36,002 nucleotides of DNA from an uncultured Candidatus Saccharibacteria bacterium (GTDB lineage: Bacteria; Patescibacteriota; WWE3; 2-01-FULL-39-13): the NCBI GenBank assembly GCA_964506905.1, contig CAZDNW010000012.1, positions 1 to 36,002 of the forward strand, given 5' to 3'. Within the stretch, counting starts at the first letter, position 1. The number at the start of each line of letters is the position of its first letter. Below, piece after piece: positions 3,128 through 25,950 of this stretch. The notes beneath the pieces are model-generated. The model was not told where the DNA came from, made no database searches, and saw only the letters and a program-made list of their open reading frames with translations. The translations under genes and the position numbers were made by a program.

Positions 3128-5245
3128 ATGAAAATAATAGAAAAAGATAATGCCCCAAGAAACCGAATAAGACCATTAATATATCTAAAGAGATTTATAG
3201 TTTTAATGATAATGGCATTTGTGCCTGTAGTTGTTACGGATTTCTTTTTAGATGGATTTTATATTAGTGATTGGCTTTCGTTATTTTTATTTGTATTTAT
3301 CTTAGGACTTTTAAATACTTTTATTTGGCCATTAATTTCTAAATTAGCATTTCCATTCGTTCTTGCAACATTAGGATTTGGTTCATTGATATTGAATGGA
3401 ATATTTATCGCAGTTGCGAGTTACTTAATTAAAGGAGTATCCGTTGGAACTATTACAGAAGGTATTGCAGTAACACTTAGTATCATTGTAGTTACTATGA
3501 TACTTAATTTAATATTTTCAGTTGATGACGATTATTCATATTATAGATATGTTTTAAATAGAACAAACAGAAAAAACACAGTAGATAAAGAAAAGGAAAA
3601 AGAACTTAAAAATAAAAAACCAGGGATTATATTTGTTGAGATTGATGGATTAGCCTATCCAATCATAAAAAAAGCAATTGAGATGGGTAAGATGCCTACA
3701 TTAAAAGGATTATTAGAAAATGGTAATTATAAACTAGTACATTGGGTTACAGAAATGGCTTCACAAACAAGTGCAAGCCAAGCGGGAATTTTGTTAGGAA
3801 ACAATAAAAATGTTCCTGCATTTAGATGGGTTGATAGAAAAAACAACCATAAAGTAGTTACATCTTCTGATCCAGATGATACTCCTAGAATTGAAGAAGA
3901 ATTATCGAACGGTGAAGGATTGTTATCTATTAACGGTGCTAGTAGGGTTAATATGTATTCAGGTGATGCAAGTGATACACTTTTTACTTTAAGTAAAATA
4001 AAGCAATTAAAGAATGTATATAATAGAGTTTTGATAACTTATTTTTCGCACCCGTACAATTTCTCAAGAACTTTTATACTATTTATATTTGAAATATTTT
4101 TGGAATATAGAAGCAGATTAAGACAAAAAAGAAAACATATTGAGCCAAGATTAGGTGGCGAAAAAAGAGGTGGAATATATCCGCTTGTTCGTGCAGCGAT
4201 GACTGTTTTCATGAGAGATTTAAATACATATGCACTTATTAATGATATATATAGAGGAGAATTTAATGTTATATATTCCACGTATGCGGCTTATGACGAA
4301 ATTGCACATCATTCGGGAATAGAAGATGATGATGCTTATAAAACTCTTGGTAAATTAGATAAACAATTTAGAAGACTTAAATTTGCAATAAAAGAAGCAC
4401 CGAGAAAATATAATGTTGTACTTCTTTCAGATCACGGGCAAACAGGAGGAAAAACATTCAAGCAAAGATATGGGTATACCTTGGGCGATTATGTTAGAAA
4501 TATATTAAAGAATAATTTCAATGTTAGCGGATATTTAAGCAACGATGAAGGTGTAAGTAATGTTAAAGCGGTTTTATCAACTATTATAAAAGAAGGTAGT
4601 ACAGTTGATAAACAAATTAACAAAGCACTAGATAAATTGGAGGATGATGATTTACCAACAATAAAAGGTAAGGATATTAAAGAAGACAGTGAATTATCTG
4701 AAGAAATGGATGAAAGATTAGAAAAAGATGTAATTGTTTTAGCTTCTGGGAATTTAGGATTGATATACTTTAAAGAATATAAAGAAAGAATAGATTACGA
4801 AGAAATTGAAAATAAAGCTTCGGGGTTTTTAGATGATTTAGTAAAGCATGAAGGGATAGGTTTTATAATGGTTAAAAATAGAGACAACCATGCAGTTGTT
4901 ATAAGTAAAGACGGAAAACATAACTTAACAACCGGAGAAATTGAAGGTGAAGATCCACTTAAACCATTTGGTAAATATGCTAAGCAATCTGTATTAAGGA
5001 TACATACATTTGATAATTGTCCAGATATCTTAGTTAATAGTTTTTATGATGAGGACAATAATGAAGGAGCAGCTTTTGAAGAATTGATTGGTTTCCATGG
5101 GGGGCTAGGTGGCACACAGAATCTAGGATTTGTTATGTACCCATCGGATCAATTTGAATTCCCTAAAGAAGAAGTTTACGGTGCTGAAAGCCTTTATCAT
5201 ATATTTAAGCAATGGCTTGATACCGTTGACAAAAAAAGTTTATGA
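3128..5245 (+). CDS. membrane-anchored alkaline phosphatase / nucleotide pyrophosphatase-phosphodiesterase family protein
   Basis: N-terminal ~140 aa form four hydrophobic helices (DUF360/holin-4-like). This is followed by PGIIFVEIDGLAYP, MASQTSASQAG and LLSDHGQTGG motifs of the alkaline-phosphatase superfamily. Ends at TGA 5243-5245. Confidence 0.8.
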   Translation: MKIIEKDNAPRNRIRPLIYLKRFIVLMIMAFVPVVVTDFFLDGFYISDWLSLFLFVFILGLLNTFIWPLISKLAFPFVLATLGFGSLILNGIFIAVASYLIKGVSVGTITEGIAVTLSIIVVTMILNLIFSVDDDYSYYRYVLNRTNRKNTVDKEKEKELKNKKPGIIFVEIDGLAYPIIKKAIEMGKMPTLKGLLENGNYKLVHWVTEMASQTSASQAGILLGNNKNVPAFRWVDRKNNHKVVTSSDPDDTPRIEEELSNGEGLLSINGASRVNMYSGDASDTLFTLSKIKQLKNVYNRVLITYFSHPYNFSRTFILFIFEIFLEYRSRLRQKRKHIEPRLGGEKRGGIYPLVRAAMTVFMRDLNTYALINDIYRGEFNVIYSTYAAYDEIAHHSGIEDDDAYKTLGKLDKQFRRLKFAIKEAPRKYNVVLLSDHGQTGGKTFKQRYGYTLGDYVRNILKNNFNVSGYLSNDEGVSNVKAVLSTIIKEGSTVDKQINKALDKLEDDDLPTIKGKDIKEDSELSEEMDERLEKDVIVLASGNLGLIYFKEYKERIDYEEIENKASGFLDDLVKHEGIGFIMVKNRDNHAVVISKDGKHNLTTGEIEGEDPLKPFGKYAKQSVLRIHTFDNCPDILVNSFYDEDNNEGAAFEELIGFHGGLGGTQNLGFVMYPSDQFEFPKEEVYGAESLYHIFKQWLDTVDKKSL

Positions 5246-5295
5246 GAGTATCTTATAGTTAGTGGTAGTTATTTAACTACTTGTCCTTATTACTT

Positions 5296-8200
5296 ATGAA
5301 AAAAATCCCAATGTTTAAATTACTAAATTACATTGCAATATTGTCAATGTTAATTCAAACTTTTTTGCCTATATTTTATGTTTATCCTTCCAATATTTAT
5401 GCACAACAAGATGATTCAGTGGTGTTATTAGAAGAATCCAATTTTGATGATTCAAATGATAAAGATGTCGATTCTACGTTAAATAAAAATCAAGAGCAAA
5501 AGGAGACTGAAAATAATAACGATAATGAAGATACAAATGATAATGATAAGGAAGATAATAAAGGCAATGATATTACTATAAAAGATAGTGACGATATAGA
5601 AAAACCTTCGGATAAAGAAGTTAATGAAGAAATTCTAGATGAATCAAATAATGACATTGAAGATACTAAGATAATAGAAGATGATGATAATGAATCAACT
5701 CCTAATGTTGATGAAACCAATGATTCCTTTATTGATGGCACCGATGAAGTGATGACAGATGAGGAATCTGATGTTACAAATGACAATAAATCACTGGATG
5801 CAGATCTTGCTAATAAAGATAATCAAACAGAAAAAGAGAGTACGGATGATGAGGATAATAAAGACACGAAGTCTAATTCAAATGAAAGCGATGAAGAAGC
5901 CAATGAGGAAACACAGATAACATACGGTAAATGGGAAAAGAAAGAAGATAATAAATACAGAATTTATGTCGAACCGCAAAAGGAATATAAGTTTGAATTT
6001 CTAGATGATGAGAAAGTTCCTACAATAAAATTTAAAGACATAGATGAAGATAATAAAGAACAAGATAGATATATTGATGTAGAAATAATTGAATTGTCAA
6101 AAAAGCAACAAGAAGCTCTTAATTCTGTAGACGATAATGCATATGATATTACTTCGGGAATGGATAATGGGACTTTTGAATACGAATTGGTTTTGCCGTT
6201 ATCAGAATCTGTAGATGAAAATGTTGTATCAGTAAATTATGTCGAAGATAAAGATACATTAGAAAAGGTTGTTAAGTCACAGGATAAAAAAGAAATCAAT
6301 AAAGTAAATGAAGATAATGTGGAAGTCTCTAACGATCTAGTTAGCATAAAAGATTTAGATCACTTCACAATATTTTATGTAAGCGCAACTGCATCAGGTA
6401 ATGTTTGTGTTATAAGTGGAACGACATACAATAACTGTTATCCAACAATACAAGAAGCTATAAATAATGCTTCTGATGGAGATACAATAGAGATTGCTCC
6501 GGATACATATACAGAAAATTTAATTGTAAATAAAGAATTAACTTTAGTTGGTATGGGAGCTAAAATTAATGATGTAACAGTTAGAACAAACACAAATGGA
6601 TCACAATCGTCTCCTGCATATGGAGTAGAAATAAAGTCTGACAATGTAACCATTAAAAATATAAGATTTCAATCACGATTGGGATATGGGTTTCATTTTA
6701 AAGTTTCTAATGTTAATAATTTTACAATAGAAGATGTTAAGCTAACAAACAAAAAGAAAAATAAAACTGTTAGAGGTTTAGATCTTAATAGTGTTGAAAA
6801 TGTTTTAATTAAAAATGTAACTGTTAAAAATTATAGGGTTCATGGTATAGGTGTTGTCTCGGTTTGTGGAAATAATGATATAACAAGTAAAGATATTATA
6901 TTTGAAAATGTGGTAGTCAAAAACACTAAATCACAAAGTGGATATGCTGGCGCAGGCATAGCGTTTTATACGCAAGCTGGTCCAAGCTGTAGTCCAAATC
7001 AAGGTGCAGATATTACAGGTGTAAAATTTGTTGGAGATAATTATTTAACGGATAACGAAATTGGAATTACATTGCAGTCAGATTTAGATTTAATCTCTAA
7101 TTCTCTATTGCAAATATGTTTATCAAACCCAAGTGGTCCAGCTTGTGTAAATGCCATTTCTGGATTGCCGACATTAAATCCAAATTATGGTGTTTATGGA
7201 CCCAATGGCGAAAAACTAGATTTACATAACATGACAATCCAAACATTAGGCAGTAGTGGGAGAATATTTCCATCAATTAGTATTCTTAATTTAGTTAAAT
7301 CTGATGTGGATGCAACCGAAGTTAAATTTGATGGTAAAGATGGCATAGGTGCAGATATGCAAACTGCAAATGAAATAGAAGATACGATTTGGCATGATTG
7401 TAAATATTCACCATATCCTCATGGATTTTGTAATGCTATAGAAAATTTAGTAAGTACTGAAAATTTTGGAAGTGTTGATTATACAGATTGGTCATTTAAG
7501 ATAAAAGGTCATAAATACAATTATATTTATTCAGGGCAACAAGGTCAGCCAACTCATCACCCAATATCTGATTGGGATATAACTGTATGTGAGTACGAAA
7601 ATGGTGATGTTATTCAAGGTACTTGTGTTACTAAATCTACAGATAATAGTGGATATTATGAGTTTGGGTATGATGATCTTGGAGTAATGCTTGGAAAAGT
7701 ATACAAAATTTTTGAAGAACCTGGTAGAACTGACTATACCTATATGCAACCAGAATCATATATAGTTGATTTTACTTCTTCAAATCCTGTTTATTATACA
7801 GAAGATAATTTAATTGAAAACGGAGATTTTGAAACTCCTAAATTATCTACAAGTTGGACAACATATCCAGATGGATATACTGGGCTAGGGTGGACACCTG
7901 CGTGGGTATCTACCAACCTAAGTGATCAAGAAAAAGATGGATATCGAAGACCAATGCCTCCAAGAGTTGAAATTCAAAAGGTTTATGATGGTGATAATCA
8001 ATATGTAGAATTAGATGGTGATTGGGGAACCTCACAAAACAATTATGTTAACGGTGAAAACGCAAATATATATTTGTATCAAATGTTTCCGACTTGTAAT
8101 GGAGTAAAATATAATTTATCGTTTGACTGGTCTCCACGACCACACCATGATGATAATCAATTAAAGGTAACTGTAACCGATGTGTATAACAATAATATTT

Positions 8201-11200
8201 CGTATGAAGATACATTCTTGGATAGTGGGGATAGTAGTATAAATTGGACACCTATAACAGCATCTTTCGTTTCAAATACCTCATTAGTAAAAATAACTTT
8301 TCAAGAAATGGGCAATGGCGATTCGTATGGTGCTTTAATAGATAATGTATCTGTATATCAAGATAGTGGTGAAAATAATAAATGTCAGTATTCAGAAGAT
8401 TCAGAATTTAATTTTTATAACAGAGTTAATAATGATGATGATAATTTAGTACCAATTTTAGTTGCACCAAAACAAACTGGTTACAATGAAGATAATGGTG
8501 ATTCATATGAAACACCACACTATCCTGATGAAAATGAAATTGCTTGTACTGGTGGAGTTACAAATGTAAATGAAGTTTCTGTACATTGGTATTTACTTGA
8601 TGAAAATGGTAATCAAGTGAATATCCCTAACTTGAAATATTTAAGGCAATTCACAACGCCGGGTTCTTCTACATGGAGAGGTCATGAAGTTTACACAACT
8701 CCTTATACAAATTATAGAACCTTTGGTGGAAATCCAGGTCATCCTGGAACATATGGCTCTAGAGTAAGAGCTTGGGTTGATTCCAATAATAATAATCAAA
8801 TAGATTTAGGTGAAGCTGTATCTGAATGGAGTAATGAATGTTCAATAACATACGAATTACCACCAGTTTGTGGAAACGAAATAGTTGAAACCGGTGAAGA
8901 ATGTGATGGTACCAGTGGAGTAGGTGAAGGTGAATTTTGTACATCTCAATGTAAATTAATCCCGGTTTACGACGGAATGAATTCATGTCCAGATGGTACT
9001 GTTGAGGTTCCAACTGGTACACAATTTACTTTGTCAAGTAAAACGGCAAATGAAGTTTCGCATAATTTTGAAAGTGGTAAAAGGTATTTATTAAAAGCAA
9101 GTGGAACCTATTCTTATGCAAATACGGAAGGTAGAAAAGCAGATGCTGCATATGGCACAACAGATAATTTTGCAAATTCTAGATCAGATATAGGTATATG
9201 GGGAACTAATAAAGGTGTTACTTCAATAATTGGTGATCTTGGTAGAGGTATGGGAGTAATAATGTGGGATGATGACCAAAATATAAATTCCAACCATGTA
9301 TATACCAAGTATTTTAATCCTCAAGCAGATGTGTTAGGTAGATTTGTAATTAGCGATTGGTATGGTGATTGGTATGGTAGTGGTTGCAATAATCAATCTT
9401 GCTTAAGTGATAATAACGGATCATTAACACTTTCTGTAAATGAATGTGCTGAGGTTTTAACACCAGTAAAACCATACTGTGACGAAACAAAAATATTTGC
9501 AAGATTGGTTGATAGTACAGAATATGGAATTAGTACAGATTCAGATTGGAATACAGATGTAGATGGCAAAATATTTTACGGTGATAAAGTTGTTAATGTA
9601 GGTGAGTGGTTTGAACTAACACCTACAACAAACAATAGAGATGAAGGTGCTGTATTATCTTATGACGGAAATAAATTATCAATAAACTTATTGGAATTTA
9701 AAGATAATGATAAGTTTCAAAGATTTAAAGGTAAAATTGAATTTTATAAGACTGCGGTAGATAATATAGAAGAAGGAACAGGTGATTATGCACTTGAAAC
9801 CTGTAACGGTTGTTATCCAGATTCTTATAATCAAGATTCATTAAAGACAGTTTCGTTTGACTTTGGTGTAACAAATGCAAATGACCAAATAAATGTAAGT
9901 TTACATCATCTAGGTTGTGCATTAGAAGCGTGTACAAATGATTTTGCGGTAAACAATGATGGTTATATATATAAGATTAATCTACAAAATGGTGATGAAC
10001 AAATAATAGATGAGCTGGAATTCGGCACATCAGCAGCTGCATCTCAACCAGGCAAAGGAAATGTTTATTATATAGAACGATATAATACATCAGGTAAAAA
10101 AGGGTTAAGATTAGCTTATTATGATATTAATGCTAGAGTAAATGTAGTAGTAGGAAACACAGGCATTAATGGTGTAATAGATAAATTAGCATTTAACGAA
10201 GATGGTGTTTTGTATGCGATGAGTTCAAACTCTGTTTTATATACAGTTGATATTACAACAGGGCAGGCAACAAAACTAGGCAAAGTATTAGGAATTACAA
10301 AACCAGGTGGAGATTTATCATTTGATAATAAAGGTGATATGTATGTTCATGTAAAGGGAGGAAATCTTTATAAGGTAAATCTATATACATTAAATGCGGA
10401 AGTAGTATCAGATACTGATATTGAATCAACTGGAATGGTATTTAAAGACAAATTTTACGCTACAGATGATAATGAGAGTTTATTTGATTTCGACTATAAT
10501 GGTTCGGTTAATATAATAAGTACCTCAACAAGCAATATAAATGACTTAGCAAGTTGCCCTGTTAAAGTTTTAAAATCTAATGTAACTGTTTGTAAGGTAG
10601 ATACAAAAGACAATTACCTAGAAGGTTGGAATGTGCAACTATTAAGAGACGAAGTGCAAAAAGATATAAGTGTACCAGTTCAAGGCGGGGCAAGTGTGCA
10701 TTCTGCATATTTACCAAAAGGCAATTATGTATTAAGCGCACATGGCACATATGAATATAGGGGAAACACAGGACTTTTAACTGATCCAAATTATTCTCAA
10801 AGATTAAAAGGTGATAATTATAGTGGTAGTGAAGAATTTTTCCCATGGATAAATGTAAATGATTTTAATCCTCCTCATGAAGGTTGGTTAGGGGTTATGG
10901 TAAATAACATGCCAACTAATTGGAGTAATTATTTATCAAGCAATCACACATATTATTTAGGGTATACAAATTATTCAGGTGAATTTAGATTCAATATATA
11001 CGATAATGTATATTCTGATAATAAAAACAGTACTATAGCCGTTGATATCTATACTGGTTATGCTGGTACAACAGGTAAAAATGGTTGTGTTACATTTGAA
11101 AATGTTCCTTATGGAGATTATGAGGTATCAGAAACTTTAAGGGATGGTTATATAAATGTAACTGGGTTAGGAAATGTAGAAGTAAACGACCTAGAAGAAA

Positions 11201-14200
11201 CATTTACTATTGAAAATAGAGATATAAGGCCAGCTAAAGTATTGGCAGCAAAAATAGTTTGTGATGATGAAAAATATTTACCAAATTGGGGTGCAAATAG
11301 AGGTGGTATCCCAATTAACGAAAATACAATTGATAACTTTTTTAATGCAGATCCTGATAGAAAAAACCATTGTGAAGTTGTAAAAGATTGGAAATTTCAA
11401 TGGGGATATGCAGGTACAGTTAGTTTTCCAGCTGATGATTTTGTTGGTGAAGCACAAGGTTGGAATACATTTGGACCTGCAGTAAATGGTGAATACGCAG
11501 TAGCAGAAGTTCCATTAGAAGAAGAGGGTATTAACTTAATTTGGGTAAGAGAAGTATTGCAGGATAACTACATACCATTTTCTTTCGGATTAAACGGCAA
11601 AACAAACAAAGACGATTATAGTGCTGAATTTTATTGTAATACAGATGGTGCAAATTATGACAATAGAGATGGAATAGGCAAAATAAGAAGACATGATGAA
11701 CCGATTATGAATAATAAGACATACTATTGCGTTGGATTTAATGCAATTCAAAAGTCAATAATAGAAGGTTATAAATTTAATGACTTAAATCATAATGGAG
11801 TTTGGGATAAAAACGAACCTGCAATGTCTGGGTGGCAAATTTATATTGATGAAAATAATAACGGTAATTTGGATGCAGGAGAAAAAGTTGTAGATACAGA
11901 TAAAAACGGATATTACAGTTTTGTCTTACCATCAAATAACACATATGTAGTGAGAGAGTTAAATCAAAACGGTTGGGAACAAACTAGTCCAGATACAGGT
12001 AGTTGCGAATTTGAAGATGTCGAAGATAGAGTTCATTATGAATGCAATTTTGGAAATGTAAAACTTGGATTGATGAAGGGCTATAAATTTAATGATTTGA
12101 ACCATGATAGTGCTTGGGGTGAAGATGAGCCCGCAATGTCAGGTTGGGAAATTTACATAGATTCTAATAATAATGGCATATTTGATGATGGGGAATTAAA
12201 CGGTATTACAGATGAAAACGGTTATTATGAATTTACAAATCTTTATCCAGGTACTTACAAAGTTTGTGAAGTTTTACAACCAGGGTGGAATCAATCATTT
12301 CCTGAATTTACAGATGGATGTTATTCAATAACATTAACAGGTGATGTAAATGAGACTTACGATACAGATTATAATTTTGGAAATTATGCTGGGGAGCCAC
12401 TTATGAAAGTTGCTGAATATAATGATGCATCTATAATGGCATTAGAATCTGCAAGTCCAATTACATTTACAATAAAACTTAGGTTTGATGAGATAGAAGA
12501 ATACGAAGCACTTGCTGATAATGTTAAGATTACTCACTTATTGCCCGAAGGTGTTACATATATACCTGGATCATATACAATAGAATCCTCTACAGGTAGA
12601 GATATGTCATCTATATCAGAAGCTGTTTATCACTCACCGGGTACTTGGGATTTAACACCGGCAGGTCCTTATGTAGAAGGTGAAGAAATCACATTAACAT
12701 TAAAAGCAAATGTTGATACAAGTGTAGTAGAGCCAGGGGTATTAAAAGATATCACATGGGCAGAATCAACACCTATTGATGATAATAATGAAGTAATATT
12801 AGCAGAAGCAGATCCAGTAGGAGGTTATGTCGCAGAAAAATTTGTTGGTACAGATGTGGAATTTACTAGTGAACCTGATTCACCAAAAGCAAATGCAGAA
12901 GTAGAAGAAAAAGAAGAAGTAAAAGAAGTTACCGAAGAGGGCCAAGTATTAGGAGCATCAACAACAGCGCTGCCAGCAACCGGTGCAAGTGCAAACTTAC
13001 TTGCTTTTGCAATGTTAATTTTAACAATAGGTGCAGCAAGTTTGCTTTATGGTATGAAAAAACAACAAGATTCAGTGGTTGTAGATAAAAGAAAAGGTAA
13101 GACTTCCGCAAAAAAGACCAAGAGAGTTGTCAAATCCTCAAAATCTAAAAAGGTAAATAAAATAGTGGCAGTGTTGATTGCGTCTTTAACATTAACATCT
13201 TTATTATTAATGGGAATTCAAACGCCGGCTTATGCTGCCGATGAATATCCTGTAATGGTTAGGGTTGAACAACCAAAGACGCCAACAAACGAGCCATTTA
13301 AATTAACATTTGTTGCGGTGGATACAGCTAATAGAGAAGTTCAAGTCACATGTTTTGTAAAAAACCCTGATGGAACAGAATCTCAATTTGATGTAGTAAA
13401 AACCTTAAAGGCAGGAGGAAACACTGATTCTTGTGATGCTAACACATCTGTTTTAAACAAAAACGGAACATATGAATTTTGGGTAACTGCTGAAGCGTTA
13501 GAAAACGAAAGTGTGAGTGGTGCTTCTGCAACAAGTGAAAGAGTAAAGGTTGATTATTCAACTTCAAACCCAGATGAACCAAAAGATTTCGAAGTAGACA
13601 AGAAAAATAATTGTGAGTATAAGATTAAATTTAAAACTGCTGATGATGGTGAAACCTCATATGTTGAAGTGTATAGATCAGACGATACAACATTCTCAGT
13701 AGGTGAAAGTACTAGAGTAAAAACAATATCAATAAACCCGAACGAGAAGTATGAGTATACTGACACACTTGCGGGTTCACAATGCGGACATACACAATAC
13801 TACGCAATAAGAGCATTTAATAGTGCTGGAAATCCATCAGATGTTGTAGCTCAAGAAAAAGTTGTGATAGTTGAAGAGGTAAAAGAATCTGAAGGTGAAA
13901 CAGAAGAAACGGGACAAACACAAGAGACAGAGGCAATAATTGTTCCTACAGAAGCTAGCACTGTAGCACAAGGCGGTGTAGAAGGTGCAGAAGTTGTTGC
14001 AGAAGGCAGCATTGCAACAGATGGAAATGGGGAAGTAAAAGGTGCCGCAACAGAAAACGAAGACCAAACAAATAATACCAATACAGAAAACACAGACAAT
14101 CAAAATTCTGATGATACTGGTGGAATAAAATCATTATTTTCGTTTAGAAATATAATAATAGGATTAATTGCATTGTTATTATTAGGTGGAGCTATTTTCT

Positions 14201-14211
14201 TAATACTTTAG
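5296..14211 (+). CDS. giant secreted surface protein (~2,970 codons) with an internal LPATG sorting signal
   Basis: Single uninterrupted frame. ATG 5296 gives MKKIPMFKLLNYIAILSMLIQTF... signal peptide (track start TTG 5281). Regions in order: D/E/N-rich acidic low-complexity, beta-helix, jelly-roll, Cys-rich repeat, propeller-like repeats, two SdrD-B-type repeats, LPATG plus TM, second signal peptide, FN3-like module, terminal TM. Sortase gene lies immediately downstream. Confidence 0.85.
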   Translation: MKKIPMFKLLNYIAILSMLIQTFLPIFYVYPSNIYAQQDDSVVLLEESNFDDSNDKDVDSTLNKNQEQKETENNNDNEDTNDNDKEDNKGNDITIKDSDDIEKPSDKEVNEEILDESNNDIEDTKIIEDDDNESTPNVDETNDSFIDGTDEVMTDEESDVTNDNKSLDADLANKDNQTEKESTDDEDNKDTKSNSNESDEEANEETQITYGKWEKKEDNKYRIYVEPQKEYKFEFLDDEKVPTIKFKDIDEDNKEQDRYIDVEIIELSKKQQEALNSVDDNAYDITSGMDNGTFEYELVLPLSESVDENVVSVNYVEDKDTLEKVVKSQDKKEINKVNEDNVEVSNDLVSIKDLDHFTIFYVSATASGNVCVISGTTYNNCYPTIQEAINNASDGDTIEIAPDTYTENLIVNKELTLVGMGAKINDVTVRTNTNGSQSSPAYGVEIKSDNVTIKNIRFQSRLGYGFHFKVSNVNNFTIEDVKLTNKKKNKTVRGLDLNSVENVLIKNVTVKNYRVHGIGVVSVCGNNDITSKDIIFENVVVKNTKSQSGYAGAGIAFYTQAGPSCSPNQGADITGVKFVGDNYLTDNEIGITLQSDLDLISNSLLQICLSNPSGPACVNAISGLPTLNPNYGVYGPNGEKLDLHNMTIQTLGSSGRIFPSISILNLVKSDVDATEVKFDGKDGIGADMQTANEIEDTIWHDCKYSPYPHGFCNAIENLVSTENFGSVDYTDWSFKIKGHKYNYIYSGQQGQPTHHPISDWDITVCEYENGDVIQGTCVTKSTDNSGYYEFGYDDLGVMLGKVYKIFEEPGRTDYTYMQPESYIVDFTSSNPVYYTEDNLIENGDFETPKLSTSWTTYPDGYTGLGWTPAWVSTNLSDQEKDGYRRPMPPRVEIQKVYDGDNQYVELDGDWGTSQNNYVNGENANIYLYQMFPTCNGVKYNLSFDWSPRPHHDDNQLKVTVTDVYNNNISYEDTFLDSGDSSINWTPITASFVSNTSLVKITFQEMGNGDSYGALIDNVSVYQDSGENNKCQYSEDSEFNFYNRVNNDDDNLVPILVAPKQTGYNEDNGDSYETPHYPDENEIACTGGVTNVNEVSVHWYLLDENGNQVNIPNLKYLRQFTTPGSSTWRGHEVYTTPYTNYRTFGGNPGHPGTYGSRVRAWVDSNNNNQIDLGEAVSEWSNECSITYELPPVCGNEIVETGEECDGTSGVGEGEFCTSQCKLIPVYDGMNSCPDGTVEVPTGTQFTLSSKTANEVSHNFESGKRYLLKASGTYSYANTEGRKADAAYGTTDNFANSRSDIGIWGTNKGVTSIIGDLGRGMGVIMWDDDQNINSNHVYTKYFNPQADVLGRFVISDWYGDWYGSGCNNQSCLSDNNGSLTLSVNECAEVLTPVKPYCDETKIFARLVDSTEYGISTDSDWNTDVDGKIFYGDKVVNVGEWFELTPTTNNRDEGAVLSYDGNKLSINLLEFKDNDKFQRFKGKIEFYKTAVDNIEEGTGDYALETCNGCYPDSYNQDSLKTVSFDFGVTNANDQINVSLHHLGCALEACTNDFAVNNDGYIYKINLQNGDEQIIDELEFGTSAAASQPGKGNVYYIERYNTSGKKGLRLAYYDINARVNVVVGNTGINGVIDKLAFNEDGVLYAMSSNSVLYTVDITTGQATKLGKVLGITKPGGDLSFDNKGDMYVHVKGGNLYKVNLYTLNAEVVSDTDIESTGMVFKDKFYATDDNESLFDFDYNGSVNIISTSTSNINDLASCPVKVLKSNVTVCKVDTKDNYLEGWNVQLLRDEVQKDISVPVQGGASVHSAYLPKGNYVLSAHGTYEYRGNTGLLTDPNYSQRLKGDNYSGSEEFFPWINVNDFNPPHEGWLGVMVNNMPTNWSNYLSSNHTYYLGYTNYSGEFRFNIYDNVYSDNKNSTIAVDIYTGYAGTTGKNGCVTFENVPYGDYEVSETLRDGYINVTGLGNVEVNDLEETFTIENRDIRPAKVLAAKIVCDDEKYLPNWGANRGGIPINENTIDNFFNADPDRKNHCEVVKDWKFQWGYAGTVSFPADDFVGEAQGWNTFGPAVNGEYAVAEVPLEEEGINLIWVREVLQDNYIPFSFGLNGKTNKDDYSAEFYCNTDGANYDNRDGIGKIRRHDEPIMNNKTYYCVGFNAIQKSIIEGYKFNDLNHNGVWDKNEPAMSGWQIYIDENNNGNLDAGEKVVDTDKNGYYSFVLPSNNTYVVRELNQNGWEQTSPDTGSCEFEDVEDRVHYECNFGNVKLGLMKGYKFNDLNHDSAWGEDEPAMSGWEIYIDSNNNGIFDDGELNGITDENGYYEFTNLYPGTYKVCEVLQPGWNQSFPEFTDGCYSITLTGDVNETYDTDYNFGNYAGEPLMKVAEYNDASIMALESASPITFTIKLRFDEIEEYEALADNVKITHLLPEGVTYIPGSYTIESSTGRDMSSISEAVYHSPGTWDLTPAGPYVEGEEITLTLKANVDTSVVEPGVLKDITWAESTPIDDNNEVILAEADPVGGYVAEKFVGTDVEFTSEPDSPKANAEVEEKEEVKEVTEEGQVLGASTTALPATGASANLLAFAMLILTIGAASLLYGMKKQQDSVVVDKRKGKTSAKKTKRVVKSSKSKKVNKIVAVLIASLTLTSLLLMGIQTPAYAADEYPVMVRVEQPKTPTNEPFKLTFVAVDTANREVQVTCFVKNPDGTESQFDVVKTLKAGGNTDSCDANTSVLNKNGTYEFWVTAEALENESVSGASATSERVKVDYSTSNPDEPKDFEVDKKNNCEYKIKFKTADDGETSYVEVYRSDDTTFSVGESTRVKTISINPNEKYEYTDTLAGSQCGHTQYYAIRAFNSAGNPSDVVAQEKVVIVEEVKESEGETEETGQTQETEAIIVPTEASTVAQGGVEGAEVVAEGSIATDGNGEVKGAATENEDQTNNTNTENTDNQNSDDTGGIKSLFSFRNIIIGLIALLLLGGAIFLIL
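6430..7250 (+). other. right-handed parallel beta-helix (pectin-lyase-fold) region of the giant protein
   Basis: NNCYPTIQEAINNASDGDTIEIAPDTYTENLIVNKELTLVGMG, followed by repeated ~22-aa N/V/I-rich turns (IKNIRF, IEDVKLTN, IKNVTVKN, FENVVVKN). Confidence 0.6.
7816..8362 (+). other. CBM / DUF642-like jelly-roll domain of the giant protein
   Basis: ENGDFETPKL...GWTP...VEIQKVYDGDNQYVELDG...YNLSFDWSPRP...ALIDNVSVYQ, the pattern typical of DUF642/CBM4_9-type lectin domains. Confidence 0.5.
8869..8960 (+). other. Cys-rich repeat (Myxococcus-type CGNGxxExGEECD motif)
   Basis: CGNEIVETGEECDGTSGVGEGEFCTSQCKL read in frame. Confidence 0.55.
11767..12390 (+). repeat. two tandem SdrD-B / Cna-B-type repeats (protein-level repeat)
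   Basis: GYKFNDLNHNGVWDKNEPAMSGWQIYIDENNNGNLDAGE...DKNGYYSF and GYKFNDLNHDSAWGEDEPAMSGWEIYIDSNNNGIFDDGE...DENGYYEF. The DNA copies have diverged. Confidence 0.65.
12970..13053 (+). other. cell-wall sorting signal: LPATG plus hydrophobic helix
   Basis: ctg cca gca acc ggt (12970-12984) encodes LPATG. It is followed by ASANLLAFAMLILTIGAASLLYG and then the basic MKKQQ. Confidence 0.85.
13054..13236 (+). other. second signal-peptide-like segment inside the giant ORF (possible internal start ATG 13054)
   Basis: MKKQQDSVVVDKRKGKTSAKKTKRVVKSSKSKKVNK (basic n-region), then IVAVLIASLTLTSLLLMGI (h-region), then QTPAYA/ADE (AxA site after 13236). Confidence 0.55.
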
Positions 14212-14220
14212 ATTTAAAGA

Positions 14221-14249
14221 GGCGGGAAAAAGTGTAACTTTTTCCCGCC
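14221..14249 (+). terminator. 12-bp perfect hairpin between the giant gene and the sortase gene (partial terminator or stability element)
   Basis: GGCGGGAAAAAG, loop TGTAA, CTTTTTCCCGCC. No U-tract follows (TAATACA), so read-through into the sortase gene is likely. Confidence 0.5.
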
Positions 14250-14261
14250 TAATACATTCTC

Positions 14262-14930
14262 ATGAAAATTAATAACAAATACCTAATATTTTTTGGAATT
14301 CTGCTAATTTTAACTGCATTAAGCTTATTGTTTGTGCAATTTTCACCGATTATAAGAGATGAAATTAAGTATAAAAAAACAAAAAATTTGGTTGAAAGCA
14401 TTGATGAAATTGTTATAAAACCAGAAGAAAACTCTAAAATTCCTAAAGAAAATATTGAAAAGAAAAAAAAGAGGCTTGTTATAGTAGCTAGAGATAAAGA
14501 CTTTTCTATTGTAATACCTAAAATTGGAGCAAATGCTAAAGTAATTGAAAATATAGACCCGTATAACTCATCTGAATATCAAAAAGCTCTTACAAAAGGG
14601 GTGGCACATGCAAAAGGCACTGCTTTACCGAATGAAAACGGAAATACATTTATTTTCGCTCATTCATCTGATAATTTTTATAATGCTAACAGATATAATT
14701 CAATCTTTTATTTATTAAATAAGATGGAAAAAGGTGATGACATTTATATTGTGTATAACGGAAAAGTTATTCCATATAAAGTAAAAGAAACAAAGATAGT
14801 TGATAAAGATAAAATTGAGTATCTAAAAAATAGCGAAAGGAAAAAAGATAATGAATTAACTCTTATGACTTGCTGGCCCCCAGGTACTACATACAAAAGA
14901 TTAATTGTTATAGCAGAAAAAAACAAATAG
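14262..14930 (+). CDS. sortase (transpeptidase), N-terminal membrane anchor
   Basis: TM helix YLIFFGILLILTALSLLFVQF, catalytic His in FIFAHSS, TLMTCWPPG (TLxTC Cys) and a downstream conserved Arg (YKRLIV). Adjacent to the LPATG substrate. Confidence 0.9.
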   Translation: MKINNKYLIFFGILLILTALSLLFVQFSPIIRDEIKYKKTKNLVESIDEIVIKPEENSKIPKENIEKKKKRLVIVARDKDFSIVIPKIGANAKVIENIDPYNSSEYQKALTKGVAHAKGTALPNENGNTFIFAHSSDNFYNANRYNSIFYLLNKMEKGDDIYIVYNGKVIPYKVKETKIVDKDKIEYLKNSERKKDNELTLMTCWPPGTTYKRLIVIAEKNK

Positions 14931-15024
14931 AAAATTTAGACCTACACAACTCCAGTATATAATGTATTATAAAAAGGTAGAGTAATTATAGTTAATTATT
15001 TTTCAAGTGGAGGTGAAATAGAAT

Positions 15025-15843
15025 ATGAAATTTTTAAAGTTAAGAAAAGGAGAATCTAATTTAGCTATTCCAATCGCAATACTGATTGCAGGTGTATTAA
15101 TTGCAGGAGCTGTTTTATATACAAATAGTTCTAAGACAAATATGCTTGGTGGTAAGAGTGCAGATAGCACAACCGAATCAGGCGGTAAATATGCTAAATA
15201 TGTAAAAATAGCAGAGGATATTGGTTTAGATGGCGATAAGTTTGAAGCATGTATGGAAAAGTTTGATAAAACAGAGGTAGAAAAAGATGTTGAAGAAGCT
15301 AAAACCTATGGGGCAAACGGAACTCCAACTTTCTTCCTCGGTGTGAAAAAAGGTGACAATGAAATAGAAGCCGTTAAACTTGTTGGGGCTCAACCATTTG
15401 ATGCGTTTAAACCTGTATTAGATACATTAGTTGAAACTAAGGATATAAACAAGGCTATTGAAGCATTACCCGACAATATGAAGGTTGATCAAACTGGTAA
15501 TCCAATTGAAGTTAAAACAGTTAATGTGTCTTTAGATGATGATGCAGTTAGGGGAAATAAAGATGCGGATGTTTATATTGTGGAATTCTCTGATTATGAA
15601 TGTCCATTTTGTAAGAGATACTCAACTACTACGCTTAAGGAAATTGAGGATAATTATGTAAAAAGTGGCAAAGTTGCATATGTATTCAGAGACTTAACAT
15701 TACCGTTTCACGAACCAGTTGCAACAGAAGAAGCTGTGGCAGCAAATTGTGCAAGATTATTAGGTGGAGATGATGCATATTATCAGTATCATGATAAAAT
15801 TTTTGAACTTACCCGATCAAATAAACAAGGAATTCCAGAATAA
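15025..15843 (+). CDS. membrane-anchored DsbA-family thiol:disulfide oxidoreductase, domain order apparently permuted
   Basis: GGAGGTG RBS at 15010-15016. TM anchor. CPFC active site at 15601-15612 within VYIVEFSDYECPFCKRY. The GLDxxKFxxC...GTPTFF...GAQPFxxF segment, which is normally C-terminal, lies upstream of it. Confidence 0.8.
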   Translation: MKFLKLRKGESNLAIPIAILIAGVLIAGAVLYTNSSKTNMLGGKSADSTTESGGKYAKYVKIAEDIGLDGDKFEACMEKFDKTEVEKDVEEAKTYGANGTPTFFLGVKKGDNEIEAVKLVGAQPFDAFKPVLDTLVETKDINKAIEALPDNMKVDQTGNPIEVKTVNVSLDDDAVRGNKDADVYIVEFSDYECPFCKRYSTTTLKEIEDNYVKSGKVAYVFRDLTLPFHEPVATEEAVAANCARLLGGDDAYYQYHDKIFELTRSNKQGIPE

Positions 15844-15867
15844 AAAACTTGCATAAGAAATTTAAAA

Positions 15868-15893
15868 GGCGGTGAAAAACACCGCCTTTTTTA
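15868..15893 (+). terminator. intrinsic terminator (A-tract before, T-tract after; potentially bidirectional)
   Basis: GGCGGTG, loop AAAAA, CACCGCC, then TTTTTTATT. Confidence 0.85.
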
Positions 15894-15951
15894 TTCATAA
15901 TAATTTACGGGTTTCTTAAATTAGTGATAAATGTTAACTTAGTAATCGTGT

Positions 15952-16302
15952 ATGAAAATCTCAAAAAAAGAAAAAGAACAAAGAGAATATGCAAGAAGTA
16001 TTATAACTAAAAAGGTTAATTCTTTGTGTGTTAAGTACGGATATACATACAATAGAATAGCTATTAAGAACACAAAAACTCGGTTAGGAAGTTGTTCGTC
16101 AAAGAAAAACTTAAACTTTAATTGGCAAATTATAAAATTTCCAGAACCAGTAATGAATTATGTTATTATTCACGAAGTCGCCCATTTAAAATATCAAAAT
16201 CACAAAAAGGAATTTTGGAATGAGGTAGAACGAATGGATTCAGATTATAAAAAACATCACAAGTGGATAAAACAAAACAGCAATAAATATATAAAATTTT
16301 AA
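15952..16302 (+). CDS. DUF45 / YgjP-like (M48-related) HEXXH metal-dependent hydrolase, short form
   Basis: TRLGSCSSKKNLNFNWQIIKFPEPVMNYVIIHEVAHLKYQNHKKEFW matches the RWGSC...LNW...DYVVVHELAHL..NHS..FW signature. Confidence 0.8.
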   Translation: MKISKKEKEQREYARSIITKKVNSLCVKYGYTYNRIAIKNTKTRLGSCSSKKNLNFNWQIIKFPEPVMNYVIIHEVAHLKYQNHKKEFWNEVERMDSDYKKHHKWIKQNSNKYIKF

Positions 16303-16359
16303 TGTAATGTTTTTCGTGTTAGAATGGTGTTATTAATCTTATTGTATTAAAGAGTTACT

Positions 16360-18417
16360 ATGCCTGCTAAAAAAAAGACCAGTAATAAAACAGATAAAAA
16401 AACAAAACACATTTCTACAAGTCACGATAATAATCATAATGGGCTTAATCGTAAAAAAAACACAACTGGTAAAGAAAAATTTAAGACAGAACAAAACGAT
16501 AAAAATAATACTGTGAAGTCTTCTAATATTAATAAAAATAAGACAAAAAATTCCACATTAAAAGCAAGAGATCAAGAAACACTTAAAAAGAAATCTACAA
16601 AATCCAAAGTAATATTTTCAAAATTAAAAAAGTTACTTTATTTTTTGTATATTATTATCGCCTTAGGGTTTATTGGCTATCATTTGTATTACGCAAATAA
16701 AGTTATTCCTAAAGTGTTTTATAGAAATATAGAAATGACAGGCAAATCTGTTAGTGAGGTTGCTGATTTAGTAACGACTAACGTACCAACTGTTGGTAAT
16801 GTTATTCTACAAATTGGAGAAGACACTGTAATTACTGTTACGCCGGACGATATTGGATTTAAGTTTTTACCGATAGATACAACACAAGATATATATAATG
16901 TAGGCCGAAGCGGTACAGTTACAGAAAATTTAAAGACTCAAATTTCCGCTATGTTTCACCCTGTTTATATTGATACTGCTTATACTTATGATAAAAACAA
17001 GGCAAAAAATTATTTAAGTATGGTAAGAGCAGAATCACTAGATTTTGTTAAAGAGCCAAAGTTTGTCTATGTCGATGGAGAATTAAAAATAATTGATGGG
17101 AAATCAGGATACACTTTTGATGAAAACGAACTAGCTGAACAAATTTCTATATGTATGACTGGTGAATGTGAAACAAATGAAATAAAAGTCAAATTACAAA
17201 AAGTAGATCCGATATTAACATTAGAGGATTTGGATTCAGTTAAACCATATGTCGATACTTATCTAAAAAACGGGATTACCTTATATTATGATGATTTTTC
17301 ATATGATTTATCTGAAGAAGAGTTGCTAAGTTTACTAAGAATAAGTGTTGACGATTGGGTTGCCCACATAACCGCTGATGAAAATGCTGTAAAAAGAAAA
17401 ATAAAAGAAATTTCTGCAAAGGTTGATAAAAATCCTAGGGGACAAGTTTTAATAACTGACGGTGATAAAGTCATTGAGTTCACAGCCGCACAAAATGGTG
17501 TAAAGGTGAAGATAAAAGAAAATACCTTAAATTTAACTAATTTAATTGAAAAATCTTTATTTTCAAATATTGCAGAAGATCCAAAGTTAGAAGTATCTGA
17601 TGATAAAAGTGAAAATACAGATCAAACCAAGCCTAATCCATATGCTTTAGAATTAGAAGTTCAAATAACTGAAGCTCCAAGTACTGAGAATGAATTTAAT
17701 ATTAAAGATTTAATAGGTATAGGAAAATCACGGTTTAAAGGATCTTCAAAAAGTAGAATTCATAATGTTGGATTAGCAGCTTCACGGGTTAGTGGTACAT
17801 TAGTTCCGCCAGGAGAAATCTTCTCGTTTAACGATGCAGTAGGGGAAATCAGTCGTAAAACAGGCTATACAGCGGCATGGGTAATTAGCAAAGGTAGAAC
17901 TGTTTTAGGTGATGGAGGTGGAGTTTGTCAGGTTTCGACAACTATGTTTAGAGCGGCCTTAGATGCTGGACTTCCAATAATAGAAAGACATGCTCATTCA
18001 TATAGGGTTAGCTATTACGAGCAAGAATCACCTGTTGGTATTGACGCTACTATTTATAGTCCGTCCATTGATTTAAGATTTAAAAATGATACACCAGGTT
18101 ATATATTGATAATGGCTGATTTTGATGGAGACGAACAAAGATTAGCCTTTAAGATATATGGAATAGATGATGGTAGAAAAGTAGAAATGACAGAGCCAAA
18201 AATATTATCAAGAACACCACCCCCTCCACCAGAATATATAGAAGATCCATCTTTACCAAAAGGTAAAAAAGTGCAAGTTGAACACCCAGTGTGGGGTGCT
18301 TCTGTTGTGTTTAATAGAAAAGTATTTGATAAAAATGATTCGTTAATATATGACGATACATTCAAAAGTAATTATAGGGCTTGGCGAGCAGTTTACAAAG
18401 TTGGTACTAAGGAATAA
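16360..18417 (+). CDS. VanW family protein with basic low-complexity N-tail, TM anchor and G5-like C-terminus
   Basis: GGGVCQVSTTMFRAALDAGLPIIERHAHSYRVSYY is the VanW core. A PPPPPEYIEDPSLPKGKKVQVEHPVWG segment follows, which is G5-like. Confidence 0.9.
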   Translation: MPAKKKTSNKTDKKTKHISTSHDNNHNGLNRKKNTTGKEKFKTEQNDKNNTVKSSNINKNKTKNSTLKARDQETLKKKSTKSKVIFSKLKKLLYFLYIIIALGFIGYHLYYANKVIPKVFYRNIEMTGKSVSEVADLVTTNVPTVGNVILQIGEDTVITVTPDDIGFKFLPIDTTQDIYNVGRSGTVTENLKTQISAMFHPVYIDTAYTYDKNKAKNYLSMVRAESLDFVKEPKFVYVDGELKIIDGKSGYTFDENELAEQISICMTGECETNEIKVKLQKVDPILTLEDLDSVKPYVDTYLKNGITLYYDDFSYDLSEEELLSLLRISVDDWVAHITADENAVKRKIKEISAKVDKNPRGQVLITDGDKVIEFTAAQNGVKVKIKENTLNLTNLIEKSLFSNIAEDPKLEVSDDKSENTDQTKPNPYALELEVQITEAPSTENEFNIKDLIGIGKSRFKGSSKSRIHNVGLAASRVSGTLVPPGEIFSFNDAVGEISRKTGYTAAWVISKGRTVLGDGGGVCQVSTTMFRAALDAGLPIIERHAHSYRVSYYEQESPVGIDATIYSPSIDLRFKNDTPGYILIMADFDGDEQRLAFKIYGIDDGRKVEMTEPKILSRTPPPPPEYIEDPSLPKGKKVQVEHPVWGASVVFNRKVFDKNDSLIYDDTFKSNYRAWRAVYKVGTKE

Positions 18418-23721: not shown

Positions 23722-25950
23722 ATGGATACAAGTGAAACAACACAATTACCATTAGAACAACTTAGACAAATTAGAATTGATAAATTGAATGAATTGAAAA
23801 AACTGGGTGTTAATCCATATCCATCCGATTCTTTTAAGAATACAGATAATGCTGAAATTAAAGAAAGGTATAATGAATTAGAGGGTAAAGAAGTTACAGT
23901 GGCTGGACGTATAAAATCAATAAGAAAACATGGGAAATTAATGTTTATCGATATATATGATGCTTCAGGTAGTATACAAATTTATATAAAATCAGAAAAT
24001 TTACAAAACGCAAATCATGATAATAGTGAATTAAATTTTGATGAGTTGCATTTATTAGACGAATCAGATTTTATTGAGGTTACTGGCAATGTGGTAAAGA
24101 CAAAGTCTGGTGAGGTTTCTGTTGAGGCAAAAAAGTTGAGAATATTAACTAAGACATTGCGTGCAATTCCCAAAAAATTAAAAGACAAAGAAATTAGATT
24201 TAGAAGAAGATATGTTGATACTAATGTTAATAGAGATGTTTATGAAAGGTTTATAAGGCGAGCTTTGTTTTGGAAAGCACACAGAGATTTTTTTGATAAA
24301 CATGGGTTTATTGAAATGGCAATTCCTGTATTAGAACATATCCCAGGTGGTGGTGATGCTGTACCATTTATCACCCATATGAATGCTATTGATGAAGATT
24401 TTTACTTAAGAATTTCGCACGAACTTCCACTTAAAAGATTAATTGGTGCTGGGTATGAAAAAATTTATGATATTGGCCCGCGATTTAGAAATGAAGGCCT
24501 ATCAGATGAGCATTTACCAGAGCATTATGCAATGGAATTTTATTGGGCGTATGCAAATTGGAAACAAGGTATGAAATTAGTAGAAGATTTATTTAATTAT
24601 ATAATTGATAAAGTTTATGATGGTAAAAGGGTTTTTGAAATAAGAGGTTTTACAGTAGATTTTTCTAATGGATGGGAAGTTATAGATTTTGCTAAGATTA
24701 TGCAAGAAAAGTACGATATTAAAGATATATATAAAGTTACAGAAAAAGAACTAAGAGAAGTTGTAGATAGGTATGAAATAGAAGTAGAAGGTAATTTTAA
24801 TATACCAAGAGTTGTTGATACCCTATGGAAAAATGTAAGAAAAGAAATTGCAGGGCCTGCGTTTTTAATAAATCATCCAAAGTATTTATCACCGTTGCAA
24901 AAACCAAGCTTAGAAAATCCGAATATGGTAGAAAGGTTTCAGCCAATTGTTGCAGGAAGCGAATTAGGTAATGGGTGGTCTGAAGTTAATGATCCAATAG
25001 ATCAGTTTGAAAGATTTATGGAACAACAAAAATTAAGAGAGCAGGGTGATGAAGAAGCACAATTTTTAGATATAGATTATGTTGAAATGCTTGAATATGG
25101 TATGCCACCTACATTTGGTTATGGACATAGTGAGAGAGTCTTTTGGTTTTTAGAAGATGTTTCAGCAAGAGAAGGCGTGCCATTTCCTCAACTTAAATTT
25201 GAGATTAGTGATGTCACAAGAAAAATTTATGGTTTGCGTAATTACGAAAGAGAAACTTCTATAAATCGAGAATCAAAACCAGAAACTTTTGATAATAATG
25301 CTGATATAAAAAAATCTTCATTAAGTAAAGAAAAACCTGATAATTCCACATCAAAAATTACTAAAGAAAAGGCTTTGGAAATATTACATAAACACATGCA
25401 AAATCAAAACTTAAGAAGACATTCTTATGCAGTTGGATATGCAATGAGTGCAATTTATGACTACCTTAAAGAAAACAATATGTTAGAAGATAATGCACCA
25501 GATAAAGAAACATGGGAAGTTTTAGGTATTTTACATGATTCTGATTATGAGTTAACAAAAGACGATTGGGATAATCATACACTTTTAACTTTAGAGTGGT
25601 TAAAAAATGAAGGATTATCTGAAAGTGATCCATTGTATCTTGCAGAAATGTCACACAATAACAAAAGAACTGGCCTACGAGAGCCACAAACCCAAATGGA
25701 ATGGGCATTAGAAACATGTGATGAATTAACAGGATTTATTGTCGCTGTTGCGTTAGTTCAACCTGAAAAAAAACTGTCAGCAGTTAAATTAGAATCAATA
25801 AAAAAGAAATGGGGACAAAAAGCATTTGCAAAAGGAGTAGAAAGAGAACAAATTGAACAATGCGAAACTAAATTAAACATTCCAATTGATACATTTATTA
25901 ATATAGTTTTAAAAGCAATGCAATCGCATTCTGATGATTTGGGATTGTAA
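23722..25950 (+). CDS. lysS: lysine--tRNA ligase (class II) fused to a C-terminal HD-domain (COG2316-like) hydrolase
   Basis: The N-terminal ~500 aa carry an OB fold plus class II motifs (GPRFRNEG, GMPPTFGYG). After a linker, from ~25354, come LRRHSYAVGYAM...LGILHDSDYE (His-Asp at 25534-25539) and ETCDELTGFIVAVALVQPEKKL...KKKWGQKAFAKGVERE. Confidence 0.9.
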   Translation: MDTSETTQLPLEQLRQIRIDKLNELKKLGVNPYPSDSFKNTDNAEIKERYNELEGKEVTVAGRIKSIRKHGKLMFIDIYDASGSIQIYIKSENLQNANHDNSELNFDELHLLDESDFIEVTGNVVKTKSGEVSVEAKKLRILTKTLRAIPKKLKDKEIRFRRRYVDTNVNRDVYERFIRRALFWKAHRDFFDKHGFIEMAIPVLEHIPGGGDAVPFITHMNAIDEDFYLRISHELPLKRLIGAGYEKIYDIGPRFRNEGLSDEHLPEHYAMEFYWAYANWKQGMKLVEDLFNYIIDKVYDGKRVFEIRGFTVDFSNGWEVIDFAKIMQEKYDIKDIYKVTEKELREVVDRYEIEVEGNFNIPRVVDTLWKNVRKEIAGPAFLINHPKYLSPLQKPSLENPNMVERFQPIVAGSELGNGWSEVNDPIDQFERFMEQQKLREQGDEEAQFLDIDYVEMLEYGMPPTFGYGHSERVFWFLEDVSAREGVPFPQLKFEISDVTRKIYGLRNYERETSINRESKPETFDNNADIKKSSLSKEKPDNSTSKITKEKALEILHKHMQNQNLRRHSYAVGYAMSAIYDYLKENNMLEDNAPDKETWEVLGILHDSDYELTKDDWDNHTLLTLEWLKNEGLSESDPLYLAEMSHNNKRTGLREPQTQMEWALETCDELTGFIVAVALVQPEKKLSAVKLESIKKKWGQKAFAKGVEREQIEQCETKLNIPIDTFINIVLKAMQSHSDDLGL

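Follow-up and report, generated by a model that had tools for sequence, protein, structure and literature searches.

The stretch of DNA analysed here (the window; 36,002 nucleotides of contig CAZDNW010000012.1, assembly GCA_964506905.1, from an uncultured Candidatus Saccharibacteria bacterium of the WWE3 lineage) carries a giant open reading frame (ORF) in which a large adhesin, complete with its sortase sorting signal, is continued in frame into a second, predicted exported protein that we call module 2. The ORF (5311..14211) comprises the adhesin, the internal sorting signal, a membrane hairpin and module 2, and is followed by a sortase gene (14262..14930); all features of the ORF and the genes directly downstream of it are on the + strand. 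The contig holding the window is chromosomal and of low GC content (~31%), and the window includes housekeeping genes (SecA, SerRS, a class II aminoacyl-tRNA synthetase, GreA, TGT and UppP). The gene caller starts the ORF at ATG 5311 (2966 amino acids, aa), TTG 5281 being the other option (2976 aa), and the frame is continuous under translation table 11. A putative N-terminal signal peptide (MFKLLNYIAILSMLIQTFLPIFYVYPSNIYA, cut before QQ; 5311..5403) was read by eye from the sequence, not with a predictor. The passenger behind it (5281-12500, counted from the upstream start) has an acidic low-complexity N-terminal region and then short repeats that look beta-helix-like by eye. It also contains a segment resembling choice-of-anchor C that scores below cut-off (residues 924-1025), one SpaA-like domain (1904-1978) and, at about 2160-2330, a pair of SdrD_B-like repeats. 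The ~170 aa before the LPxTG form a conserved DUF11/CLIPPER-like stalk domain, which is the last domain of all the related adhesins described below; in the window its match to Pfam PF01345 is weak (12508..12786; 16.7 bits, E=0.0097), in one relative (P0004) the match is above the Pfam threshold, and the consensus is conserved across 89 fused relatives. The passenger N-terminal of this domain is variable, from <400 to >2,500 aa among relatives. ‘CLIPPER’ (PF01345) is DUF11 renamed, an isopeptide stalk domain (PMC12617251), and the idea that it might be a self-cleaving domain was rejected on that ground.

A VLG motif (GQVLGASTTALPATG; 12946..12954) that is kept in relatives lies shortly upstream of the LPATG sortase recognition motif (12970..12984), so that the residues leading into the latter read GQVLGASTTA-LPATG. 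Next comes a 23-aa hydrophobic segment (transmembrane segment 1, TM1; ASANLLAFAMLILTIGAASLLYG; 12985..13053), predicted from hydropathy to be a stop-transfer helix running from outside to inside, and then a predicted cytoplasmic K/R-rich loop of 36 aa with a net charge of about +13 (MKKQQ...KKVNK; 13054..13161), which is opened by an in-frame ATG at 13054, exactly where TM1 ends. An LPATG pentapeptide, a hydrophobic segment of ~20 aa and then basic residues (KK..K/R) are what is seen in LPXTG substrates, but where these have a stop codon within a few residues the frame here runs for 385 codons beyond the sorting signal. It enters a second hydrophobic segment (TM2; IVAVLIASLTLTSLLLMGIQTPAYA; 13162..13236), predicted from hydropathy and a conserved site to be an internal signal peptide with h-region and c-region (IQTPAYA) and a signal peptidase I cut after 13236 (AYA/ADE, with ADEYPVMV next). 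The predicted loop thus has two roles, being at once the sorting signal's basic tail and the n-region that precedes TM2. Module 2 then consists of a beta-sandwich domain with a conserved Cys pair and an N-terminal VRxxQPK(T/S)P motif (domain 1; 13237..13560), an FN3-like beta-sandwich domain with another conserved Cys pair (domain 2; 13561..13881; C.YKIKFKTADDG...YRS...YYA.RAF), an acidic/Thr-rich disordered stalk (13882..14145) and a C-terminal membrane anchor, identified by structure prediction and hydropathy (TM3; IIIGLIALLLLGGAIFLIL; 14146..14208; stop codon 14209-14211). There is no stop and no ambiguous base in the DNA of 12900-13320. A preliminary description of this DNA had set out the same order of segments, and translation of 12700-14300 together with the ORF list reproduced it with every coordinate, including the LPATG, helix and basic patch; the C-terminal 436 codons agree with it exactly. 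A simple 19-residue scan of insertion energy found exactly three membrane-competent blocks (TM1, TM2 and TM3) across the 2966-aa protein.

The AlphaFold2 (AF2) model of module 2, built from an 18-sequence alignment (mean predicted local distance difference test score, pLDDT, 76.9), gives two confident beta-sandwich domains (residues 1-215, pLDDT >90), of which the second is the FN3-like segment that had been noted previously, then the acidic/Thr-rich stalk (residues 216-299, pLDDT <50) and a confident helix (residues 304-323). Foldseek against the PDB matched the model to tandem FN3 pairs (neogenin, contactin, Ihog), transglutaminase beta-barrels and Vibrio cholerae RbmA, and no family in Pfam, NCBIfam or the precomputed Pfam annotation covers it. 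As the four Cys residues are 98-100% conserved and the fold is a tandem beta-sandwich, module 2 is predicted to be extracytoplasmic. Apart from the missing sortase motif, its tail resembles a sorting signal: of 163 members, 152 have [VI]LG ~10-15 residues ahead of the last helix and 150 end in a basic tail, while LPxTG was found in the tail of none. The window copy is without the basic tail, and its VLG-like motif is degenerate (GEVKGAA, 13990-14010, within the stalk). Our guess is that module 2 might serve as a membrane-proximal scaffold or partner of the sortase–adhesin pair.

The sortase gene next door, which the preliminary description had also placed there, matches Pfam PF04203 (E=6.6e-26) and encodes an N-terminal membrane anchor, the TLMTC active-site motif, AHSS and YKR, i.e. 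the catalytic Cys, His and Arg. The NCBIfam model sortase_fam scored above its cut-off and no class-specific model reached its own.

Fused and split forms of the cassette

A search with the C-terminal 453 aa of the giant protein returned 20 proteins at 30-41% identity. Some of them stand alone (300-340 aa) and bear an N-terminal signal peptide of their own, and others are longer, with LPATG, a helix, basic residues and a second hydrophobic segment ahead of the module. Species-representative genomes of GTDB were scanned for related loci with a profile made from a 6-sequence alignment, which gave 10 loci, nearly all in Patescibacteria (WWE3, Saccharibacteria, Microgenomates, Nomurabacteria and Daviesbacteria), the closest being in WWE3 at 60% identity; eight of the 10 are fused and two split (table 11). 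A profile of the folded part of module 2 had 1,510 matches at E<=1e-3 and 447 at E<=1e-30 among 1.84 billion representatives, and the family has at least 447 clusters at 50% identity at the stricter threshold. The 164 proteins that we examined divide into 97 fused forms (module after >90 upstream residues) and 67 stand-alone forms. Among the fused proteins, 90 of 97 have an LPxTG within 130 aa upstream of the module (LPATG in 50, LPSTG in 21, LPGTG in 12, and others) and most of the remainder carry near variants (MPSTG, MPATG, FPATG or YPDTG). Because all show the same order of helix, loop, helix and A-x-A site, a chance layout is excluded.

The details of the junction are shared as well. In the fused proteins the median is 24 aa for TM1 and 7 aa for the loop (n=95), which ranges from 2 to 35 aa and always carries a net positive charge (+2 to +13). 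A small-x-small site stands just before the module in all 97 fused proteins, with Ala at −1 in 95 of 97 and Val or Ala at −3 in about 90%, percentages that are somewhat flattered by a site picker favouring Ala; these residues are indistinguishable from those of the stand-alone proteins, 67 of 67 of which also have such a site and in which the same segment is an ordinary N-terminal signal peptide. At the other side of the junction an [VI]LG motif lies 2-8 residues upstream of LPxTG in 92 of 95 adhesins of the cassette. From this pattern of conservation, the predicted processing signals are under selection in the fused forms.

Two kinds of split locus were seen. In L001/L002 and L003 the upstream gene ends in LPATG, a helix and IRFIKSSNKK, and its TAA is followed immediately, without spacer, by an in-frame ATG (MKLKLF...); these TAA-ATG junctions are at 9998-10003 in L001 and 1406-1411 in L003, and it would take a single point mutation, or a single read-through event, to turn this type into a fusion. 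L007, L012, L016, L017 and L018 are of the second kind, with an 8-nt overlap between the LPATG gene and the module gene, which are read in different frames. On a neighbour-joining tree of the module there are at least 23 switches between fused and split, against a mean of 52 with the states shuffled, so that the states are clustered, although the count is rough as the tree is built on a noisy 200-aa domain. The context of the loci is constant, with an LPXTG adhesin upstream and the sortase gene immediately downstream of module 2 in 17 of 17 loci (the window, L001-L018 and two strain variants). Since the sortase follows in every locus and the genes are tightly coupled and often fused, we take adhesin, module 2 and sortase to be one unit. 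Judged by these comparisons, the fusion in the window is genuine and has recurred in evolution. It lies within a cassette of Patescibacteria that has three parts: a variable giant adhesin ending in a DUF11/CLIPPER-like domain and LPATG, a membrane-anchored tandem-FN3 module 2 and a dedicated sortase.

The preliminary description had allowed for a stop codon lost by mutation or sequencing error, and some relatives do have a single in-frame TAA between the two parts. This explanation is nevertheless refuted, and an error in the window contig has next to no probability. An exact look-up found the giant protein on no contig other than that of the window, but the identical sortase is present on two other assemblies, L014 (JGI 3300028908, 6,179 bp) and L015 (Logan SRR8542060, 3,947 bp). 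The former aligns to window 10428-16606 at 99.68% identity (20 mismatches, 0 gaps) and the latter to 12076-16022 at 99.87% identity (5 mismatches, 0 gaps), and in both the frame is open across the junction, so that three assemblies from different data sets concur, with single-nucleotide polymorphisms (SNPs) and no indels; the 5-20 SNP differences speak against all three having been built from the same reads. The sole difference at the junction is in L014, where A2650V at position −3 turns PAYA into PVYA, and as Val is the commonest −3 residue in the family this change obeys the −3 rule. The closest relative, L004, and most members of the family are likewise fused. It had further been reasoned that ordinary separate genes in close relatives would make the fusion here most likely an error; separate genes do occur in some relatives, but the inference fails, since the family tree shows many alternations between the fused and the split state. 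The SNPs between the window, L014 and L015 are unevenly spread, with five synonymous changes within 40 nt (10431-10470) and a second cluster in the adhesin of nine changes, four of them non-synonymous, within 120 nt (12016-12133), which suggests short recombination patches between strains.

Proposed processing of the fused chain

The reading best supported by the comparative evidence, and probably the correct one, is that the ORF encodes a polyprotein cut by sortase and signal peptidase I, much as in the first of the explanations in the preliminary description, where the signal peptidase cut was tentative. The route that we infer from sequence and comparison would start with the N-terminal signal peptide, which would launch Sec export of the ~2,530-aa adhesin until transfer was stopped by TM1, leaving LPATG at the outer face of the membrane. 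The K/R loop would be kept in the cytoplasm, and TM2, acting as an internal signal peptide, would restart export, now of module 2, which TM3 would anchor in the membrane. The neighbouring sortase would then cut LPAT/G and hand the adhesin to an acceptor, presumably a cell-wall precursor, and signal peptidase I would cut after AYA and free an 85-aa membrane hairpin. The predicted products are an adhesin of about 2,526 aa (signal peptide removed), the 85-aa hairpin and the 324-aa module 2, the last of which would end as a tail-anchored surface protein beside the sortase. The fusion would give 1:1 co-production and co-insertion of adhesin and module 2, and the split relatives would come close to the same result by translational coupling. 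Several points weigh against this reading. The loop of the window is the longest of the 95 and unusually long for the n-region of a signal peptide, and the lineage of the window (the window itself and L004) keeps an in-frame Met at the start of the loop, from which internal initiation could contribute. The NCBIfam LPXTG_anchor model (TIGR01167) matches residues 2564-2595 with 15.8 bits against a cut-off of 15.9. The topology is based on hydropathy, charge and motif conservation, and the Foldseek matches of module 2, at E of about 1e-6 with low TM-scores, amount to a generic FN3 scaffold and give no catalytic hint.

The retained Met is the basis of another explanation in the preliminary description, that module 2 is made separately by internal initiation at ATG 13054 (MKKQQ...) with a classic n-h-c signal peptide, the read-through product being minor or irrelevant. 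This ATG coincides with the end of TM1, L004 also carries a Met, placed four residues deeper into the loop, and 54 of the 95 fused relatives keep a Met there, as expected of a relic start codon of a once-separate gene. The remaining 41, however, are without a junction Met and still have a signal-peptide-like TM2 and an A-x-A site, from which we argue that an internal ATG cannot be the general source of module 2, which in these 41 must be exported within the long chain, with TM2 re-initiating translocation. The n-region would moreover be 36 aa long, against 3-6 aa in the stand-alone homologues, and a ribosome on the giant ORF makes the fused chain in any case. A promoter scan of 12000-15100 gave matches at chance level, with none on the + strand at 12800-13240. 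There is no Shine-Dalgarno sequence at 13054, but most genes of the window are without one, so the absence does not count as evidence against initiation there, and both scans around this ATG are uninformative. We think it improbable that internal initiation accounts for module 2; it may add to the supply in the window gene, but it is not needed and not the general route of the family. The start regions of the window point to non-Shine-Dalgarno or leaderless initiation in this organism; A/T-rich TAnAAT-like boxes were seen directly before the ATG of several of its genes (e.g. 3128, 15025 and 19952).

Other readings differ in what becomes of the two cleavage sites. If sortase cut LPATG and TM2 stayed uncut, module 2 would stay joined to the TM1–loop–TM2 hairpin, giving a membrane protein with three helices; signal peptidase cannot always reach an internal signal peptide and all three helices are membrane-competent, but a plain helix needs neither the Ala at −1 nor the Val or Ala at −3 that are equally conserved in fused and split proteins, and we regard this outcome as unlikely. 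That the LPATG is vestigial and the product a permanent polytopic membrane protein with two ectodomains, never cut, would fit the score of the sorting-signal model marginally under its cut-off. Against it, LPxTG is kept in 90 of the 97 fused relatives at 35-45% overall identity and the VLG pre-motif is conserved too, from which it can be argued that sortase still acts on the fused proteins; the adjacent sortase gene is always present, and the split relatives end in a canonical C-terminal sorting signal, so this reading appears very unlikely indeed. A further and quite improbable variant is that the sortase resolves the LPAT-acyl intermediate onto module 2, and not (or not only) onto the cell wall, with either the N-terminus exposed by signal peptidase or the Lys of VRxxQPK(T/S)P, which is mostly conserved, as the acceptor. 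If so, the fused form would be a case of sortase-driven protein splicing, in which the 85-aa hairpin is excised and the adhesin rejoined to a TM3-anchored tandem-FN3 stalk, and in the split form the sortase would ligate two gene products; such ligation would explain the constant adjacency and frequent fusion of adhesin, module 2 and sortase. The family alignment of module 2 was searched for an invariant acceptor nucleophile and none was found: the Lys of the QPK motif is 79% conserved, a Lys in a YSK column reaches 93% but is replaced by Val in the window, and at the predicted new N-terminus the residue varies (A 36%, G 13%, S 12%).

Meaning of the cassette and its neighbours

Sortase substrates are defined and annotated by a C-terminal signal, and we describe a large unannotated family in Patescibacteria that bears the complete signal internally, with a short positive hairpin linking it to the signal peptide of the protein that comes next in the operon. 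By interchanging repeatedly, the fused and split forms provide a natural experiment, which indicates that a sorting signal and a signal peptide together can serve as an excisable membrane linker, with the sortase as one of two enzymes that would process the polyprotein. The comparison also flags module 2 as a conserved partner of a dedicated sortase system, in bacteria about whose machinery for host attachment little is known, and it warns annotators that ORFs of this kind are neither errors nor ordinary C-terminally anchored proteins.

Directly after the sortase lies a gene for a DsbA-like thiol-disulfide oxidoreductase (15025..15843; Pfam), which, given the four conserved Cys residues, is possibly associated with module 2; in relatives it is outside the cassette. 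The order of its Pfam matches is unusual, with the C-terminal part of DSBA at residues 59-130 and Thioredoxin_4 at 172-260. Elsewhere in the window, a holin-like four-helix membrane domain (PF04020) is fused with an AlkP/phosphodiesterase domain in the ORF at 3128-5245, and the class II aminoacyl-tRNA synthetase (23722-25950; 742 aa) has ~250 aa beyond the part covered by Pfam.

Comparison with known systems

The adhesin part resembles canonical LPXTG substrates in its signal peptide, its stalk domains (SpaA-, SdrD_B- and DUF11/CLIPPER-like), its LPATG, helix and basic residues and the adjacent sortase, and differs from those of the TIGR01167/PF00746 type in that the sorting signal is internal and 385 further codons encode a second exported protein. 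A parallel for one gene yielding two membrane or exported proteins is the cytochrome b/c1 precursor FbcH of Bradyrhizobium japonicum, which has an internal signal peptide and is cut by signal peptidase into two proteins in fixed stoichiometry; there is no sortase step in FbcH and the proteins are unrelated. Sortases are common in Patescibacteria (PMC6744442), and the cassette is not described in the literature that we searched on internal LPXTG motifs and on sortase in Patescibacteria, the Candidate Phyla Radiation (CPR) and Saccharibacteria. A membrane remnant of sortase cleavage with a function of its own is known in the C-peptide of Streptococcus gordonii (PMC11502775), but that remnant is a helix and tail of ~30 aa acting on a histidine kinase, whereas the one predicted here carries a folded ectodomain.

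Module 2 can be likened, by architecture alone, to PamR (WP_260763282.1) of the Pam pilus operon in the CPR bacterium Ca. Mycosynbacter amalyticus. In PamR a signal peptide is followed by a tandem pair of FnIII (RbmA-like) domains and, at the C-terminus, a membrane helix; the protein is proposed to tether the pilus to the membrane, with an extra N-terminal strand proposed to insert into a pilin (bioRxiv 10.64898/2026.03.03.709456). RbmA is among the Foldseek matches of module 2, whose own N-terminal strand is modelled by AF2 with pLDDT 84-91. The settings differ, as PamR lies in a chaperone/donor-strand operon (PapD-like chaperones and Pam pilins) and module 2 between an LPXTG adhesin and a sortase; in the Pam pilus paper sortase comes up a single time, within general introductory text (bioRxiv 10.64898/2026.03.03.709456).

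The closest parallel to the proposed route is found in the streptococcal IgA1 protease (ZmpA) and its relatives ZmpB, ZmpC and ZmpD, whose described layout runs from a signal peptide and LPXTG through two membrane segments and a further signal-peptidase site to a large ectodomain (PMC3518915). In the model proposed for their secretion the second segment is a second signal peptide (PMC3518915, citing Bender & Weiser 2006), which makes what remains after the LPXTG a functional surface protein, and loss of SrtA depletes the Zmp proteins from pneumococci (PMC13604702). The view in the preliminary description that sortase substrates with a folded surface protein as remnant are undescribed therefore does not hold, as the Zmp proteases are such substrates (PMC3518915). 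The protein of the window shares with them the LPXTG, the two hydrophobic segments, the second signal-peptidase-type site and the large extracellular part, and no sequence homology between the two was found. In Zmp the LPXTG is near the N-terminus after a short stretch, whereas here a ~2,530-aa folded adhesin precedes it and both products would be substantial; module 2 is a tandem FN3 protein with its own membrane helix and no M26 zinc-metalloprotease domain (HEXXH...E); and here many relatives encode the two halves in separate genes, a dedicated sortase gene lies next to them, and the lineage is Patescibacteria. If the polyprotein reading is correct, the little-known Zmp model would be generalised beyond the streptococci.

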